Shown here piece by piece: positions 21,485-40,415 of a DNA stretch of 64,000 nucleotides. Within the stretch, counting starts at the first letter, position 1. Every line of letters starts with the position of its first letter. The notes beneath the pieces were generated by a model, which saw only the letters and a list, made by a program, of their open reading frames with translations, searched no databases and was not told the DNA's origin. The position numbers and the translations under genes were made by a program. This DNA comes from a virus: UHGV virus genome UHGV-0098755, one strand, 5' to 3'.

Positions 21485-22465
21485 TTATTTTAGAAGAGTA
21501 ACCTCAGCAATTTCTTCCCAACCATTTTTGTCGGTCATAATAAAGTCAGCAAGATAAAGAGCAGTACGCAGTGAAACATTGCGTAAACGATTAACATTAA
21601 CTTTCATCCATGATAATGCTTTATAAGTTTCTTCATCAGAAAGACCGCGCTTTTGCATCATGTCAGTTGAAAGAATAACATCTTCAACCCTGACCATAAT
21701 TTCTTCATTAGTGTGAACACCCAAATCTAAATAAACCGAGCGGGACACTAATGCTTGTAAGTGTGGAGCAAGTTTAGTACCACGGTCTAATTCGCGGTCA
21801 ATGTCAACGTTTGTGATAAAAACAATCGTTCCTTTAAATTCAAACTCACGGTCAATGCCTTTTTCTTCTAAGTAAGAAGATGCAGTGCTCCAGCAGACTT
21901 TACGGGTCTCTCCAGTGTCCAGAGCAGCTTTTAGAAGATTAAGAATGTCCATATCAGAGAAAACATCCACATCATCAATCAAAAGGACAGAATTCTCTTC
22001 ACGATTATTCCAAAGCTGTTCATAAAGACCAATACCAGAGATTTTACCATTAATGCTTTTATATTCAATGTATCCATTATCATTTGCTTTATTTAAAGCT
22101 TTATCTAAAGAATACGTTTTACCAATACCTGCTGCGCCAGAGATAATTAATGAACGAATATTTCCATTAATAATACCATTCGTCATCATTCCCATAACAT
22201 TAAATCTTTTATTAATGCGGGTTTTCATATCTTCATACGATTCTTTAACTTCTTCAACTTTTACACCATCATATGAAATATCTGATTTGTAAACCCAAAC
22301 ACCGCGACGTTTACCGTCAATTTCAACAAAAACTTTACCATCTCCTTGTGCATCTACCGGAGCATTATCTGGGAACCATTCGCCTAAGAGCTCAAAAGTT
22401 CCAGAGATTTCTTTACCGAAGTAGATACCCTTATTGATAGTTACAGTTTTCATTTTATTCTCCAA
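21485..22465 (-). CDS. P-loop NTPase (AAA-like) of unknown function
   Basis: 326 aa; Walker A SGAAGIGKT and Walker B VLLIDDVD. Confidence 0.6.
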   Translation of the reverse strand: MENKMKTVTINKGIYFGKEISGTFELLGEWFPDNAPVDAQGDGKVFVEIDGKRRGVWVYKSDISYDGVKVEEVKESYEDMKTRINKRFNVMGMMTNGIINGNIRSLIISGAAGIGKTYSLDKALNKANDNGYIEYKSINGKISGIGLYEQLWNNREENSVLLIDDVDVFSDMDILNLLKAALDTGETRKVCWSTASSYLEEKGIDREFEFKGTIVFITNVDIDRELDRGTKLAPHLQALVSRSVYLDLGVHTNEEIMVRVEDVILSTDMMQKRGLSDEETYKALSWMKVNVNRLRNVSLRTALYLADFIMTDKNGWEEIAEVTLLK

Positions 22466-22522: not shown

Positions 22523-22786
22523 TTATTTTAATGTTTGCCAAATTTTTACTGCTTCGCGACGAGATACTTCTACGGCGCCAAGTTCTATAGCTTTTTGGCG
22601 TCGCCGAGCGTGTAAGTCATAATGTTTAATGCGTTTATCTTGAAACCAAGAACGTTTCATTCCTATTGCTTCTGCCATTTCGTGAAGCTCTTCAATATCT
22701 CCATCAGTGAACATATGACAATTTTTAGTTGGATGACCGCGAAGTTTCCATCCATGATTCATTAAAACATCTACGTAAACTGTCAT
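22523..22786 (-). CDS. hypothetical protein (nrdC.11 position)
   Basis: 87 aa ORF. Confidence 0.45.
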   Translation of the reverse strand: MTVYVDVLMNHGWKLRGHPTKNCHMFTDGDIEELHEMAEAIGMKRSWFQDKRIKHYDLHARRRQKAIELGAVEVSRREAVKIWQTLK

Positions 22787-22932
22787 TGATTCTTCTCCAA
22801 ATAAGTTTCGATAATTTTCTGGGCGAGATAAACCGCGTTATCTTCAGTTGCGTCTTCTAAGAAACTTTCAAAACACTCTGAAATTTCTTCTGTATCAATC
22901 AACTTTTTTACTTCAATTGGTGTAATTTTCAT
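22784..22932 (-). CDS. hypothetical small protein
   Basis: 49 aa ORF (below track cutoff) read by hand; stop overlaps next gene's ATG. Confidence 0.3.
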
Positions 22933-23057: not shown

Positions 23058-23543
23058 TTATTCCATTTCTACTATATGCATGTTCTTTTTGCTATCAAAA
23101 TATATGTTTTTAACTATTAACTCAGAATTAATTGGCAGTAAAAACTCTCTTTCATAATCTACCATACAAAGATTATCATAAAGCTTGTTAAGCTTATCAT
23201 CGTCAGTTTGGCCAGATTCTTCAATTGCGATTAAATTTTCTAAAATGTCAATCATAGCAGTCGAATAGTCGAAAACGTTTGCATTTTTTAACACTACTAA
23301 AACATTAGTCATATAGCGTTCTGCCGCAAACGTTTCAGCTATATGAGACTCACTGCTAAAGGAAGTTATTCTTTTAAATTTGATTCTCCTATTAACTTCA
23401 AACTTATAAGATAGCACTTCCTCTATTGTAAGTCCTCTAAAAAGCACGTCTTTAATCTCAAGTTTGTCTTTAATGTAATCATTAACACGCTTATGATTAA
23501 AATCATTAATTTTGTTGCCAAGGCATTGCATTAAAATATGCAT
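23058..23543 (-). CDS. hypothetical protein with ADP-ribosyltransferase-like R / S-x-S / E-x-E motif spacing
   Basis: 161 aa; FRG (~aa 36), SFSSES (~aa 62), YEREF (~aa 130); own promoter and terminator; motif match by eye only. Confidence 0.35.
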   Translation of the reverse strand: MHILMQCLGNKINDFNHKRVNDYIKDKLEIKDVLFRGLTIEEVLSYKFEVNRRIKFKRITSFSSESHIAETFAAERYMTNVLVVLKNANVFDYSTAMIDILENLIAIEESGQTDDDKLNKLYDNLCMVDYEREFLLPINSELIVKNIYFDSKKNMHIVEME

Positions 23544-23641: not shown

Positions 23642-23669
23642 CAAAAAAAGGGGAGCCCGAAGGCTCCCT
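23642..23669 (-). terminator. intrinsic terminator after the nucleotidyltransferase-like gene
   Basis: GGGAGCC-TTCG-GGCTCCC hairpin then U7. Confidence 0.6.
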
Positions 23670-23670
23670 A

Positions 23671-24684
23671 TCATTTATAATAACTTCGGTGGTTTTCAAG
23701 ATAAACCCTCTCAAGGAAGTCATCCCAGAAACCCATGTCTACTTTTTGCTGCATACCGTTCTTAGAAGCTTCAATTGATGCTGCTTCTACTTGATCGACC
23801 ACATCTTCCAAAAACTCTTGAACCGTTTTAAATGGATGTTTACCAAGCTTCACGTCGAGAATAAATGGAGCGTCTTGGAGTGGATAGACTAAGTCACCAG
23901 TTTTGTAAATTTCCAATAGTTGGAGTCCACCACGACAAGCATGACTCAGAGCTTTCCAGTCAATACCCTCATTCGCTTCAGCCTTACGAGCGCGTTCACC
24001 ATATTCGGCATCAAGTTTATTCAAAGACTGCTTAAGCTCAATAAGAGAAAGTGTTGTCTGATATTTACGACCCAACACGGTATAAAACGTTTGTGGGCCT
24101 GTTTTCTCATGATTATGGAATACCCATTCGCAGAATTCGTTCTCTGGAAGACGATGCTTAATATCTTCAACTTTAGTGCGACGTTGCTTAATAGAACCAT
24201 CTTCTTGGTAATCAACCCACTGGTCAGGGATTTGATTAACTACTTTCAATACATCACGTAATGCGGCCAAACGAGAACCCTTGACACCGTATTTAGAAGC
24301 TTGCTTGCGAACATATCCTAAATAGGATTTCATGTTAGTCGTATAAAAACGAGAACGATTGTCTTGAATGAACTTCCATACATCAGGCAAATCAGATTTA
24401 ACTACCAGTTCAGGTGGAGTGTGGAGCATATCCAATGCTACAGTTTCACCATCTGCTGCTAATTTAAAGAAATACTTAAGACTGTACAGTTCATGGTCAA
24501 TATCATCTTTAGTGTTTTTAGATGATGTGTTGTTAGTGTTTTTACTCATATGCTCTTTAACATTTCCAATAAGAATATCACGAGCAGGAGGAACAAAGAT
24601 TTCTTTAAAATCTACATCAGATTCTGGAGTAGAAGTTCCATAAAGATGACTACCAAAATAGCTTTTCATTACTGTTTTCATCAT
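23671..24684 (-). CDS. Pol-beta-superfamily nucleotidyltransferase-like protein
   Basis: 337 aa; N-terminal YFGSHLYGTSTPESDVDF matches the GS-x(9-13)-DxD nucleotidyltransferase signature; helical C-terminal half; terminator hairpin after stop. Confidence 0.55.
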   Translation of the reverse strand: MMKTVMKSYFGSHLYGTSTPESDVDFKEIFVPPARDILIGNVKEHMSKNTNNTSSKNTKDDIDHELYSLKYFFKLAADGETVALDMLHTPPELVVKSDLPDVWKFIQDNRSRFYTTNMKSYLGYVRKQASKYGVKGSRLAALRDVLKVVNQIPDQWVDYQEDGSIKQRRTKVEDIKHRLPENEFCEWVFHNHEKTGPQTFYTVLGRKYQTTLSLIELKQSLNKLDAEYGERARKAEANEGIDWKALSHACRGGLQLLEIYKTGDLVYPLQDAPFILDVKLGKHPFKTVQEFLEDVVDQVEAASIEASKNGMQQKVDMGFWDDFLERVYLENHRSYYK

Positions 24685-25142
24685 TCAGCCTTATATTCAA
24701 TAACAGGACATACTTTAGCTTTACGCGCTTTTAAAAATTCGACGATAATAGATTTCTTGGGTTGAATAGGAGGTAAACCTTTATACGCCCTATCAATATT
24801 TTCTACGTGTAAAGCATAGTCCTTTTTCCATTTATAATCTTTATATTTTTCATGCAGTTGTGCAGGAATAACAAATGAACCAATAATAAGTAAAACAAGC
24901 AAAATGGCAAGTATAAATGCTGATGGAATAAGAGTCCATAAACTACCAAAAATAAGCCATTTCTGTATGATTTCTGCGCAGATGATAGTTAGACCTGCGA
25001 GTATAGTACATCCGAAAAAAGAAACGAAAAATGTAGGGATAACAATAGACCAAAAGTATGCGCACAGCGTCTTAGGTCGTTGCCATTCATCGTTAAACAA
25101 TTTGAATAATTTATAGTGCCAAGAGTTTTCATTAATAATCAT
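24681..25142 (-). CDS. membrane protein (about 3 TM helices)
   Basis: 153 aa, three long hydrophobic segments; overlaps the nucleotidyltransferase gene start by 4 nt. Confidence 0.55.
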   Translation of the reverse strand: MIINENSWHYKLFKLFNDEWQRPKTLCAYFWSIVIPTFFVSFFGCTILAGLTIICAEIIQKWLIFGSLWTLIPSAFILAILLVLLIIGSFVIPAQLHEKYKDYKWKKDYALHVENIDRAYKGLPPIQPKKSIIVEFLKARKAKVCPVIEYKAE

Positions 25143-25144
25143 AA

Positions 25145-25666
25145 TTATCCTTTCATTGAAGGTGTAACAGTTGTTAAATATTTAATCATAGCTTCAGCTT
25201 CTGATTTTGATAATGAAATTTCTCCATTGTTTTGACGAATAGAAATAAAATCCGGATGACGGTCACCACCGGCTTTTAAAACACACATATAAGTATCAGA
25301 TTCGTCTTCGATATTTGAAATGATTGAAGCAGTTCCACACGAATGTGGTTTTTGATAAATCAATACAGCTTTTCTTCCACCGTTTGACTGTTCATAAACT
25401 TTTAACACATCAAACAAATCACTTCTTTTATCAATAGCTAAGATGTTATTTTCATCTTCAATGTTAAATCCTTCGGATACTTCATAAAGTGTTACCCATA
25501 AATCACCTATATCGATAGTAGCATTTACTTTTCCATGACTTTCAAGAGCATGACAAATTTTCTTGATTTCGTCATAACTCATTTTAATAATATCATCTCC
25601 TTGAATAAGGAAGATGTCATTTTTAAATTCAACACGAATTAAACCACTTTCACTTGAAATAAACAT
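25145..25666 (-). CDS. hypothetical protein, tandem paralog B
   Basis: 173 aa; shares C-terminal block (...EAEAMIKYLTTVTPSMKG) and internal GFNIE motif with upstream 185 aa ORF. Confidence 0.5.
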   Translation of the reverse strand: MFISSESGLIRVEFKNDIFLIQGDDIIKMSYDEIKKICHALESHGKVNATIDIGDLWVTLYEVSEGFNIEDENNILAIDKRSDLFDVLKVYEQSNGGRKAVLIYQKPHSCGTASIISNIEDESDTYMCVLKAGGDRHPDFISIRQNNGEISLSKSEAEAMIKYLTTVTPSMKG

Positions 25667-25672
25667 ATTTCC

Positions 25673-26230
25673 TCACTTTGAAATCATAGTTGGAATGACA
25701 GAATCAAGATAAGTCTTTAGCGCAATAGCTTCGTCTTTGGTAAATGTGACAATATGTGATCGAAAATCGTCAATTTGGCGAATAGTTAAGACATCTCCTT
25801 CTTCATAACATTTTGATACATTTAAAACAGTTTCATCATTCTGATCACAAGCGTTAGTAATAATAGCATTGCAATTTTTAAACCATTTTAAACTATGTTT
25901 TCTTTCATTAGAATAATAAAAATATTTAATCTTAGTTATAAAATTATCCCAATTATTAATTGATAAGCATATTGACTCGCTTTCAATATTAAATCCTGGG
26001 CATGAAGAATAAAAATGAATTTTATGCTCATCATTAATGCTTACAATTTTATCAGTATAAGGATTTTCAATTTGGGTTAAATGAATGATTTCACTAGGCG
26101 TAAAATACAGCATATCGTCTTCTTGCGTCAAACGATACATATTATTTACTTTTTCTATAGCCAATTCACCAAAAAGTGAACTAACTTCTAGTACTAATCG
26201 TTTCATATTGATTCTCTTCGACTCACTCAC
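25673..26230 (-). CDS. hypothetical protein, tandem paralog A
   Basis: 185 aa; ...DEAIALKTYLDSVIPTMISK C-terminus similar to paralog B. Confidence 0.5.
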   Translation of the reverse strand: MSESKRINMKRLVLEVSSLFGELAIEKVNNMYRLTQEDDMLYFTPSEIIHLTQIENPYTDKIVSINDEHKIHFYSSCPGFNIESESICLSINNWDNFITKIKYFYYSNERKHSLKWFKNCNAIITNACDQNDETVLNVSKCYEEGDVLTIRQIDDFRSHIVTFTKDEAIALKTYLDSVIPTMISK

Positions 26231-26363: not shown

Positions 26364-26396
26364 TTACTATATCATAACCTTGCCAACTTGTAAACC
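26364..26396 (-). promoter_or_regulatory. T4 early-type promoter for the paralog/TM/nucleotidyltransferase operon
   Basis: GGTTTACA ... TGATATAGTAAT. Confidence 0.45.
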
Positions 26397-39587: not shown

Positions 39588-39663
39588 TGGTCGAGGCAGT
39601 AGGGATCGAACCTACGACCCAGGACTTAGAAGGTCCTTGCTCTTCCTTCTGAGCTATGCCTCG
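39588..39663 (-). tRNA. tRNA-Arg (anticodon UCU)
   Basis: Cloverleaf folded by hand: perfect acceptor stem, T-arm GGTTCGATCC, anticodon loop CUUCUAA, CCA encoded. Confidence 0.8.
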
Positions 39664-39667
39664 TATT

Positions 39668-39742
39668 TGGCGGACGTGATAGGATTCGAACCTATAACCA
39701 ATCGCTTAACAGGCGATCGCTCTGCCATTGAGCTACACATCC
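39668..39742 (-). tRNA. tRNA-Asn (anticodon GUU)
   Basis: Hand-folded; D-arm GCTC/GAGC, anticodon stem ATCGC/GCGAT, loop CUGUUAA, T-arm TTCGAAT, CCA encoded. Confidence 0.75.
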
Positions 39743-39746
39743 AAAT

Positions 39747-39833
39747 TGGTGGGGAGTGATGGAGTCGAACCACCCGAGTCGCAATGACAATGGATTTACA
39801 GTCCACACCGCTACCTCTACGGGATAACTCCCC
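39747..39833 (-). tRNA. tRNA-Tyr (anticodon GUA), long variable arm
   Basis: Hand-folded 87 nt; anticodon loop CUGUAAA; long extra arm; T-arm GGTTCGACTCC. Confidence 0.7.
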
Positions 39834-39842
39834 AAATTAATT

Positions 39843-39917
39843 TGGTGGCCCTGGGTGGAATTGAACCACCATCTGGCGATTATGAGTCGCTTGCTTGAAC
39901 CTTCCAGCTACAGGGCC
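39843..39917 (-). tRNA. tRNA with anticodon CAU (Ile2/Met type; T4 tRNA-Ile equivalent)
   Basis: Hand-folded; anticodon loop CUCAUAA; T-arm GGTGGTTCAATTCCACC. Confidence 0.7.
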
Positions 39918-39918
39918 T

Positions 39919-39994
39919 TGGTGCTGATTGACGGAATCGAACCGCCGACCTTCTCATTACAAGTGAGTTGCTCTACCTACTGAGCTAAATCAGC
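39919..39994 (-). tRNA. tRNA-Thr (anticodon UGU)
   Basis: Hand-folded; anticodon loop CUUGUAA; D-arm GCTC/GAGC. Confidence 0.8.
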
Positions 39995-39999
39995 AAAAC

Positions 40000-40089
40000 T
40001 GGCGGAGGCGATAGGATTTGAACCTATGAGTCGCCGGAGCGACTGCCGGTTTTCAAGACCGGTGCATTAAACCACTCTGCCACGCCTCC
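40000..40089 (-). tRNA. tRNA-Ser (anticodon UGA), long variable arm
   Basis: Hand-folded 90 nt; anticodon loop CUUGAAA. Confidence 0.8.
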
Positions 40090-40091
40090 AG

Positions 40092-40165
40092 TCTCCATAC
40101 AAGGATTTGAACCTTGGACCTCCTGATCCCAAATCAGGCGCTCTACCAAACTGAGCTACACGGAG
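40092..40165 (-). tRNA. tRNA-Pro (anticodon UGG), CCA not encoded
   Basis: Hand-folded; anticodon loop UUUGGGA; T-arm AAGGTTCAAATCCTT. Confidence 0.75.
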
Positions 40166-40175
40166 TAAATTAAAT

Positions 40176-40249
<74 letters not shown>

Positions 40250-40254
40250 AAATT

Positions 40255-40341
40255 TGGTGCGAGAAGTGGGACTCGAACCCACAAGGAAATCATTCCGCAG
40301 CATTTTAAGTGCTGTGCCTTTACCAATTTGACCATTCTCGC
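40255..40341 (-). tRNA. tRNA-Leu (anticodon UAA), long variable arm
   Basis: Hand-folded 87 nt; anticodon loop CUUAAAA. Confidence 0.8.
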
Positions 40342-40342
40342 G

Positions 40343-40415
40343 CTGGGAATAAAGGACTCGAACCTTTGCATCTAGCAGTCAAAGTGCTATGCCTTACCAA
40401 CTTGGCTAATTCCCA
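40343..40415 (-). tRNA. tRNA-Gln (anticodon UUG), CCA not encoded
   Basis: Hand-folded; anticodon loop CUUUGAC; abuts tRNA-Leu 5' end. Confidence 0.75.

Follow-up and report, generated by a model that had tools for sequence, protein, structure and literature searches.

The NrdC.11 protein of the Tequatrovirus genome UHGV-0098755, an RlaP-family nucleotidyltransferase with a possible role in phage tRNA repair

Bacteriophage T4 is the source of the first RNA-repair pathway, in which Pnkp and Rnl1 reverse the cleavage of tRNA-Lys by PrrC. The lesion left by RloC, excision of the wobble nucleotide, has been described as one expected to defeat this two-enzyme repair. The name RlaP was reportedly given to a family of nucleotidyltransferases (NTases) by Burroughs and Aravind in 2016. 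Phage members of the family have been predicted by Iyer and colleagues, from Aravind's group, to restore nucleotides removed by RloC-type enzymes before ligation (PMC7824862). The gene considered here, an orthologue of T4 nrdC.11, belongs to this family and lies in the virus genome UHGV-0098755, of which a stretch of 64,000 nucleotides (the window) was analysed.

A December 2025 preprint (10.64898/2025.12.29.696909) characterises two RlaPs of Pseudomonas whose genes lie between rtcB and rtcA. The enzymes of P. fluorescens and P. aeruginosa attach one or two nucleoside monophosphates (NMPs) or deoxynucleoside monophosphates to the 3'-OH of RNA, preferably with Mn2+, and are inactive on DNA, protein and 3'-phosphate ends. 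Given a cleaved-tRNA mimic, they act on its 5' half in preference to the natural 3' end, and they improve the aminoacylation of a repaired tRNA in which one nucleotide had been missing. When the substrate is total RNA of E. coli, they label full-length tRNAs, rRNAs and single-stranded RNAs, with little specificity for the nucleoside triphosphate (NTP). The structure, solved at 2.1 A, consists of an NTase domain and a helical domain; in this crystal architecture, that of the P. fluorescens enzyme, the C-terminal helix folds back onto the NTase domain and a cleft separates the two domains. The same preprint lists T4 NrdC.11 in Pfam family PF10127, assigns it to cluster 5 of a sequence similarity network (SSN) in which the studied enzymes fall in cluster 1a, and calls its function unknown. 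In T4, the block from nrdC.11 to mobD.3 is dispensable on laboratory hosts (PMC9825161).

The window belongs to a Tequatrovirus, with 95-97% DNA identity to phages that include vB_EcoM_ACG-C40 and HY01 (megablast). The 337-amino-acid (aa) open reading frame (ORF) reported by the initial annotation, which was made from the letters of the window and its ORF list, is borne out on the minus strand, where it spans exactly its listed interval from ATG to TGA (Table 1); the plus-strand frame of the same interval is closed by many stops. The encoded protein begins with MMKTVMKSYFGSHLYGTSTPESDVDFKE, and a second in-frame ATG at 24,681 gives the 336-aa form annotated in relatives and in most database records. 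In tblastn the protein matches a reading frame of Shigella phage SH-1 with 100% identity and T4 NrdC.11, a 38.9 kDa protein encoded in the nrdC-mobD region, with 98.5% identity over 337 residues; in the RefSeq record of ACG-C40 the product is called 'nucleotidyltransferase, similar to T4 NrdC.11'. The gene, which is T4 nrdC.11, is no discovery: it had been annotated, placed in RlaP and discussed in print as a probable enzyme of RNA repair. Earlier publications cover its assignment to the family, the role predicted for it and the biochemistry of the bacterial members, and the idea is not new. The additions made here are modest: the long-form insert, its absence in Krischvirus, the linkage of this particular clade to repair genes, and a count of the coupling to a membrane protein.

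The protein is almost certainly an RlaP-family NTase. Pfam PF10127 (RlaP, 'RNA repair pathway DNA polymerase beta family') matches residues 7-135 (43.7 bits, gathering score 23, E 3.4e-11), and PHROG 388 'nucleotidyltransferase' matches with E 6.8e-137. An alignment of 135 homologues, reaching down to about 25% identity, was assembled, and 126 of these match PF10127 individually. The Pol-beta superfamily signature that the initial annotation had noticed near the N-terminus is present as Y9-F26 (24,607-24,660) and fits hG[GS]-x10-DhDh, the motif residues being F10-G11-S12 and D23-V24-D25-F26. A search of the window with the Pol-beta regular expression (segments of at least 60 codons, all frames) gives one match, against 0.46 expected in shuffled sequence, and such a match alone is weak evidence. 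That this is a real active-site motif and not a chance occurrence follows from the PF10127 and PHROG 388 matches, from the invariance of its residues and from their placement on strands of a structural model.

Residues G11, S12, G16, S22, D23, D25, Q128 and G229 are invariant in all 135 homologues, as are K244, H248, R251, P268 and G281 in the C-terminal part, where K279 is near-invariant. Three further acids come close to invariance, D61 (133/135), D63 (131/135) and E65 (126/135), and lie on or beside strand 62-68 of an AlphaFold2 model. The DHELY segment pointed out as a possible source of the third acidic residue exists at residues 63-67, although it begins 38 residues past D25 and not about 45 as had been stated; its D63 is a conserved candidate for the third acid, but D61 is equally conserved and constitutes a second one.

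The AlphaFold2 model was built from the same alignment (mean predicted local distance difference test score 88, predicted template modelling score 0.71). It contains the alpha/beta NTase core (Table 1), with the conserved motif residues on the core strands and helices extending to about residue 150, followed by a beta-rich stretch (155-209) and a helical C-terminal region (214-336). The outcome that the initial annotation had named as refuting its proposal, a predicted structure without this core, did not occur. Hidden Markov model (HMM) matches, conservation and structure prediction agree on a Pol-beta-superfamily NTase fold having a DxD pair and a third acid in the D61/D63 strand. Searches of the PDB with the protein and with the 135-sequence profile gave no match even at E 10.

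None of the families that the initial annotation listed for this fold is the correct one, and RlaP was missing from its list. The match to the MNT antitoxin model MntA, of 13.2 bits, stays below the cut-off of 60 (NCBIfam), the protein is 337 aa long and no HEPN toxin gene is adjacent. No family HMM of the aminoglycoside and lincosamide nucleotidyltransferases (ANT) matches, the only Pfam hit of this type being NTP_transf_2 with 13.9 bits, under its cut-off of 21; ANT(4') kanamycin nucleotidyltransferase and Exiguobacterium 3c18, which act on small molecules, show no significant sequence or HMM match and 9-11% identity. CCA-adding enzymes and poly(A) polymerase I resemble the proposed activity in their template-independent addition to RNA 3'-OH ends and their Pol-beta-type active site, but they form another family: the window protein has no PolyA_pol-type Pfam match, and Cid1 and TUT7 appear only at a Foldseek probability of at most 0.14. 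Such class II NTases have another body and tail architecture, and their product is a defined CCA or a long tail. Neither list of structural matches contains cGAS, DncV or any other CD-NTase. PADLOC returned nothing for the NTase, for the membrane protein encoded upstream or for the nearby ADP-ribosyltransferase-like gene, and NCBIfam gave nothing useful for the three. The C-terminal domain was also considered as a HEPN RNase and rejected: its sole Rx4-6H motif (residues 326-332) is not conserved, ending as it does in a poorly aligned stretch (column occupancy 0.49 for residues 331-337). The suggestion that the protein could modify nucleic acids was right, in that characterised RlaP members modify RNA 3' ends; interference with host signalling, offered alongside it, is unsupported.

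Many GenBank and UniRef records call homologues of NrdC.11 and NrdC.10 'thioredoxin', and one homologue is labelled 'HNH homing endonuclease'. Nothing in the sequence backs these labels, of which thioredoxin is rejected for NrdC.11 homologues; they look like names transferred from the locus designation nrdC.x or from the neighbouring MobD.

Compared with the Pseudomonas RlaPs, the phage protein shares PF10127 and the hGS...DxD...D catalytic set and appears to share the succession of an NTase and a helical domain, and the same chemistry is expected. It differs in SSN cluster and in having an insert of about 105 aa past model position ~142, and its gene is not beside a ligase gene. The insert distinguishes a long form from a short form of NrdC.11. 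The orthologue of Krischvirus JSE is a short form of 232 aa that lacks window residues ~131-241 (a 106-residue alignment gap) and keeps all catalytic and C-terminal motifs (L092:2504-3202). Of the 249 positions of the Pfam RlaP model, the window protein aligns to 23-142 only and the JSE form to 24-198, and in the other long forms tested the alignment stops at ~142-147; neither the window protein nor the JSE form matches the last ~50 positions of the model. From these ranges and the gap, the RlaP core appears to be colinear but interrupted by the insert. Conserved residues of the insert are Y132, K135, G136, R138, Y228, G229 and R231, and it has no structural relative in the PDB.

Homologues of NrdC.11 occur in 1565 phage records (tblastn) and span the Straboviridae, including Tequatrovirus, Mosigvirus, the Klebsiella, Acinetobacter, Aeromonas and Vibrio KVP40-like groups, and Sinorhizobium phiM7, together with a few jumbo phages. 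A search of 1.84 billion cluster representatives found 3421 proteins at E <=1e-3 and 828 at E <=1e-30. When one genome per prokaryotic species was scanned, 168 related stretches were found in bacteria and archaea; the best 80 loci were kept, 78 of them with an intact ORF, at 33-54% identity over query residues ~2-328, and their neighbours were clustered and cluster representatives checked with Pfam. These long-form cellular RlaPs (from Asticcacaulis, Desulfobacterales, Nitrospirota, Bradyrhizobium and others) resemble the phage protein over nearly the full length, insert included, and match PF10127 over the same model range, but are chromosomal.

A gene for RNA repair lies within 6 kb of the full-length homologue at 18 of the 78 cellular loci. 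The repair genes encode RtcB (about nine loci), a Pnkp-ligase with Hen1 (about six), a T4-type kinase-phosphatase (four), Ro60/TROVE (four) and an Rnl1-family ligase (two). Since repair genes are rare in genomes, this linkage is, by an informal estimate, far above chance adjacency. At one locus a kinase-phosphoesterase-Rnl1 fusion gene ends 4 nt before the RlaP gene (L052). The clearest physical link of NrdC.11-type proteins to the T4-type repair pair is a 4-kb contig from a Bathyarchaeota metagenome-assembled genome bin (L008, 62-3803), which encodes on one strand a long-form RlaP, a T4-type Pnkp (37% identity to phage PseT) and an Rnl1-family ligase, with a 130-aa ORF between the first two and a 143-aa ORF between the last two; this contig may itself be a phage fragment.

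Phage neighbourhoods were compared at 78 diverse, dereplicated viral loci. In ACG-C40, the closest annotated relative, PseT and RnlA are encoded about 80 kb from NrdC.11, so that the repair partners are present in the genome but in trans. On a metagenome contig of 370 kb, the size of a jumbo phage, the gene for a HAD_SAK_2 'Swiss Army Knife RNA repair' phosphatase overlaps the start of the RlaP gene. It is one of three contigs of 270-370 kb that were read, and two have an ATP-dependent ligase gene 1-5 kb away; these neighbours are suggestive and not decisive. At the locus of jumbo phage fENko-Kae01 the neighbours are all hypothetical.

The orthology to T4 NrdC.11, the family, the conserved catalytic residues, the NTase fold, the insert and the cellular linkage to repair genes are established here; from them we infer a chemistry, an RNA substrate and an anti-defence role. 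The most likely function is to help tRNA repair by adding nucleotides to RNA 3' ends, with a probability of roughly 0.6. By homology, the enzyme would use a divalent metal, probably Mn2+, and NTPs to add one or two NMPs without a template, and the acceptor is probably an RNA 3'-OH. The metals would be held by D23 and D25 with either D61 or D63, and the RNA and NTP by the helical C-terminal domain and the insert, through conserved basic residues (K135, R138, R231, K244, R251). PseT, the polynucleotide kinase-phosphatase, would first yield a 3'-OH end, NrdC.11 would then replace nucleotides taken by RloC-type anticodon nucleases or other ribotoxins, and the ligase RnlA or Rnl2 would next reseal the tRNA at its correct length. 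NrdC.11 would thus be the third component of the phage tRNA-repair pathway. The specific RloC-type scenario is put forward with less confidence than the RNA 3'-OH acceptor.

Several points weigh against this function. At 60 of the 78 cellular loci there is no repair gene in the available sequence, and no gene for RnlA, PseT, RtcB or HAD_SAK_2 is found within 3 kb of NrdC.11 in the window or at the 78 viral loci. With no ligase, Pnkp or RtcB gene adjacent, the link between the phage protein and repair depends on the bacterial homologues and on repair genes that occur elsewhere in the same genome. The characterised RlaPs, in SSN cluster 1a, have no insert, whereas NrdC.11 is in cluster 5, and the measured biochemistry is that of the P. 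fluorescens and P. aeruginosa enzymes, neither of them a long form. Untemplated addition would moreover spoil tRNAs that are merely nicked, as in the PrrC case, a difficulty raised in the preprint itself (10.64898/2025.12.29.696909). The dispensability of the T4 block from nrdC.11 to mobD.3 fits an accessory anti-defence role and gives no positive phenotype.

The same chemistry could also serve a different substrate and purpose, the mending or tailing of RNA 3' termini, in which CCA-trimmed tRNA ends would be refilled or host RNAs would receive short tails for faster decay. The labelling of full-length tRNAs, rRNAs and single-stranded RNAs by the Pseudomonas enzymes, with their low NTP specificity, would suit such an activity (10.64898/2025.12.29.696909), as would the phage's own cluster of 10 tRNA genes and the lack of an adjacent ligase gene in phage loci. 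However, it is unlikely in view of the preference of those enzymes for the 5' half of a cleaved-tRNA mimic over the natural 3' end, of the absence of a Pfam match to any CCA-adding family, and of the linkage of clade homologues to RtcB, Pnkp, Rnl1 and Hen1, which points to the sealing of internal breaks. A transferase of MNT or kanamycin nucleotidyltransferase type would instead have a protein or a small molecule as its substrate; it might AMPylate and thereby neutralise a HEPN RNase toxin of the host, or modify a metabolite or antibiotic-like compound. This is quite improbable: the MntA and NTP_transf_2 scores fall short of their cut-offs, E. coli proteins are not labelled by the Pseudomonas RlaPs, the family and the clade are linked to RNA-repair genes, and there is neither a neighbouring HEPN toxin gene nor a conserved Rx4-6H motif.

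According to a review, Hailong HalB (PDB 9dbh) is a host defence protein that makes an oligodeoxyadenylate gating the HalA channel. A phage module of this kind would pair an NTase making short oligonucleotides or oligodeoxynucleotides with the translationally coupled membrane protein; alternatively, NrdC.11 alone would mimic HalB, and its oligonucleotides would jam oligonucleotide-gated host defences or keep a HalA-type channel shut. The insert of about 105 aa would set the product or the partner, and NrdC.11 would then not be a repair enzyme, or not solely one. This reading is very improbable. The window protein has no detectable sequence relationship to HalB or to any other PDB chain (E > 10), nor has the membrane protein, and PADLOC matches neither of them. 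Membership in Hailong was rejected because this relationship and an obligatory membrane-channel partner were not found: T4 and 36 of the 78 viral loci lack the membrane gene, and at most of the loci that have it further genes lie between it and NrdC.11. The Pseudomonas RlaPs, furthermore, stop after one or two nucleotides and do not extend DNA. An enzyme like CD-NTases or cGAS, making or mimicking cyclic-nucleotide signals against host signalling of the CBASS type, was among the options of the initial annotation; the shared Pol-beta superfamily motif is its sole support, and it is the most far-fetched of the readings considered. RNA 3'-end addition in tRNA repair is retained as the preferred function.

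Table 1. Coordinates in the window of the NrdC.11 gene, its parts and the elements flanking it
Feature	Position	Strand	Basis or remark
NrdC.11 orthologue, coding sequence	23671..24684	-	Stop TGA 23671-23673; ORF list, tblastn, RefSeq, Pfam RlaP
Residues 1-130, NTase core (strands 3-10, 24-31, 45-49, 62-68) and first helices	24295..24684	-	Aligns to Pfam RlaP model positions 23-142
Residues 10-26 FGSHLYGTSTPESDVDF, hG[GS] motif and D23-x-D25 predicted metal-binding pair	24607..24657	-	Conservation in 135 homologues; regular-expression match at 24657
Residues 61-65 DIDHE, candidates for the third carboxylate, strand 62-68	24490..24504	-	Conservation; AlphaFold2 strand
Residues 131-241, long-form insert (helix 137-150, strands 155-209, helix 214-236)	23962..24294	-	
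Residues 242-337, C-terminal helical domain with invariant DWKAxSHAxR motif (K244, H248, R251)	23674..23961	-	
Upstream 153-aa membrane protein (PHROG 944)	24681..25142	-	Stop overlaps NrdC.11 start
Hairpin GGGAGCCTTCGGGCTCCC with a T-run after it, resembling an intrinsic terminator, 3 nt past the NrdC.11 stop	23651..23668	-	Predicted end of transcription unit
T4 early-type promoter-like site (GTTTACA, 17 nt, TG-n-TATAGT)	26366..26394	-	Consensus match only; closest candidate promoter upstream of the unit

NrdC.11 is on the same strand as in T4 and in the same place, between the mobD.x/rI block and nrdC.10, but its immediate neighbours differ. Upstream, T4 has the MobD HNH homing endonuclease where the window has the 153-aa membrane protein; downstream, T4 has NrdC.10 directly, whereas the window has a ModA/ModB-like gene, a 49-aa ORF and a DUF4031 gene first. 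In JSE, as in T4, a homing endonuclease gene is directly upstream of NrdC.11. The membrane protein ('membrane protein' in PHROG 944) is strongly hydrophobic at residues ~25-60 and 62-98 and has no match in the PDB. The coupling to it that had been proposed is real as a 4-nt overlap (ATGA) of its stop with the first ATG of NrdC.11, but it is not conserved. The membrane protein has homologues in 935 phage records, fewer than the 1565 of NrdC.11. Among the viral loci its gene lies within 3 kb upstream in 42/78 and overlaps NrdC.11 directly in 13/78, and at one locus MobD is inserted between the two (L100); the NrdC.10 AAA-ATPase gene is found downstream in 34/78 and is about as constant. The membrane protein is a neighbour in the same transcription unit, part of the conserved synteny of a hypervariable early region, and no obligatory pair is shown.

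This unit appears to run from the promoter-like site (26,394-26,366) to the strong terminator-like hairpin (23,668-23,651) and to comprise a 42-aa ORF, two y05I-like genes, the membrane protein gene and NrdC.11, with no predicted terminator between the promoter-like site and NrdC.11. The designation of NrdC.11 as an early protein agrees with the early-type promoter-like site upstream, the timing being read from sequence only. The whole window contains 27 matches to the MotA-box-like pattern TGCTTNA-N10-14-TANNNT of middle promoters, where 7.6 are expected; most are minus-strand sites within the first 14 kb and around the tRNA genes. The region from 23.6 to 26.4 kb has no such site.

The genes around NrdC.11 vary among relatives. 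The tandem y05I/MobD.1-like 'putative transcription factor' paralogues (25,145-25,666 and 25,673-26,230, minus strand; T4_y05I_N, T4_y05I_C) lie directly upstream of the membrane gene, and T4 has one copy. Downstream, a 161-aa ORF (23,058-23,543, minus strand) matches the C-terminal part of PHROG 832 'RNA polymerase ADP-ribosylase' (ModA/ModB-like, E 1.2e-23) and has its own early-type promoter-like site (23,618-23,590) and terminator (23,046-23,030). It occurs at this place in only 3/78 viral loci, T4 having nothing there, and it looks like a moron-type extra ADP-ribosyltransferase paralogue. Also inserted between NrdC.11 and NrdC.10 are the DUF4031 gene, for a protein of 87 aa (Pfam E 1.5e-21), and the 49-aa ORF that overlaps it (22,523-22,932, minus strand), found here in only 5/78 viral loci and absent in T4. 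NrdC.10 itself (21,485-22,465, minus strand, 326 aa) is putatively a P-loop AAA/STAND-like ATPase, by weak nSTAND3 and AAA_16 matches (E ~1e-4, below gathering scores); no homologue of it was found beside bacterial NrdC.11-like genes.

The tRNA cluster (39,588-40,415, minus strand) contains 10 genes, namely Arg-tct, Asn-gtt, Tyr-gta, 'Met'-cat, Thr, Ser, Pro, Gly, Leu and Gln. The 'Met'-cat gene probably encodes a lysidine Ile tRNA, and the Tyr tRNA is scarcely over the Rfam threshold (30.2 bits against 29). T4 has eight tRNA genes, without Asn and Tyr. The extra tRNAs may be relevant to tRNA-targeting host defences, and hence to the proposed repair role of NrdC.11.

If NrdC.11 does restore a missing nucleotide, the classic T4 RNA-repair pathway would have a third enzyme, and the question of whether RloC damage defeats T4 repair would become directly testable through deletion of nrdC.11 in T4. 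Because the gene is conserved across the Straboviridae, the answer would apply widely.

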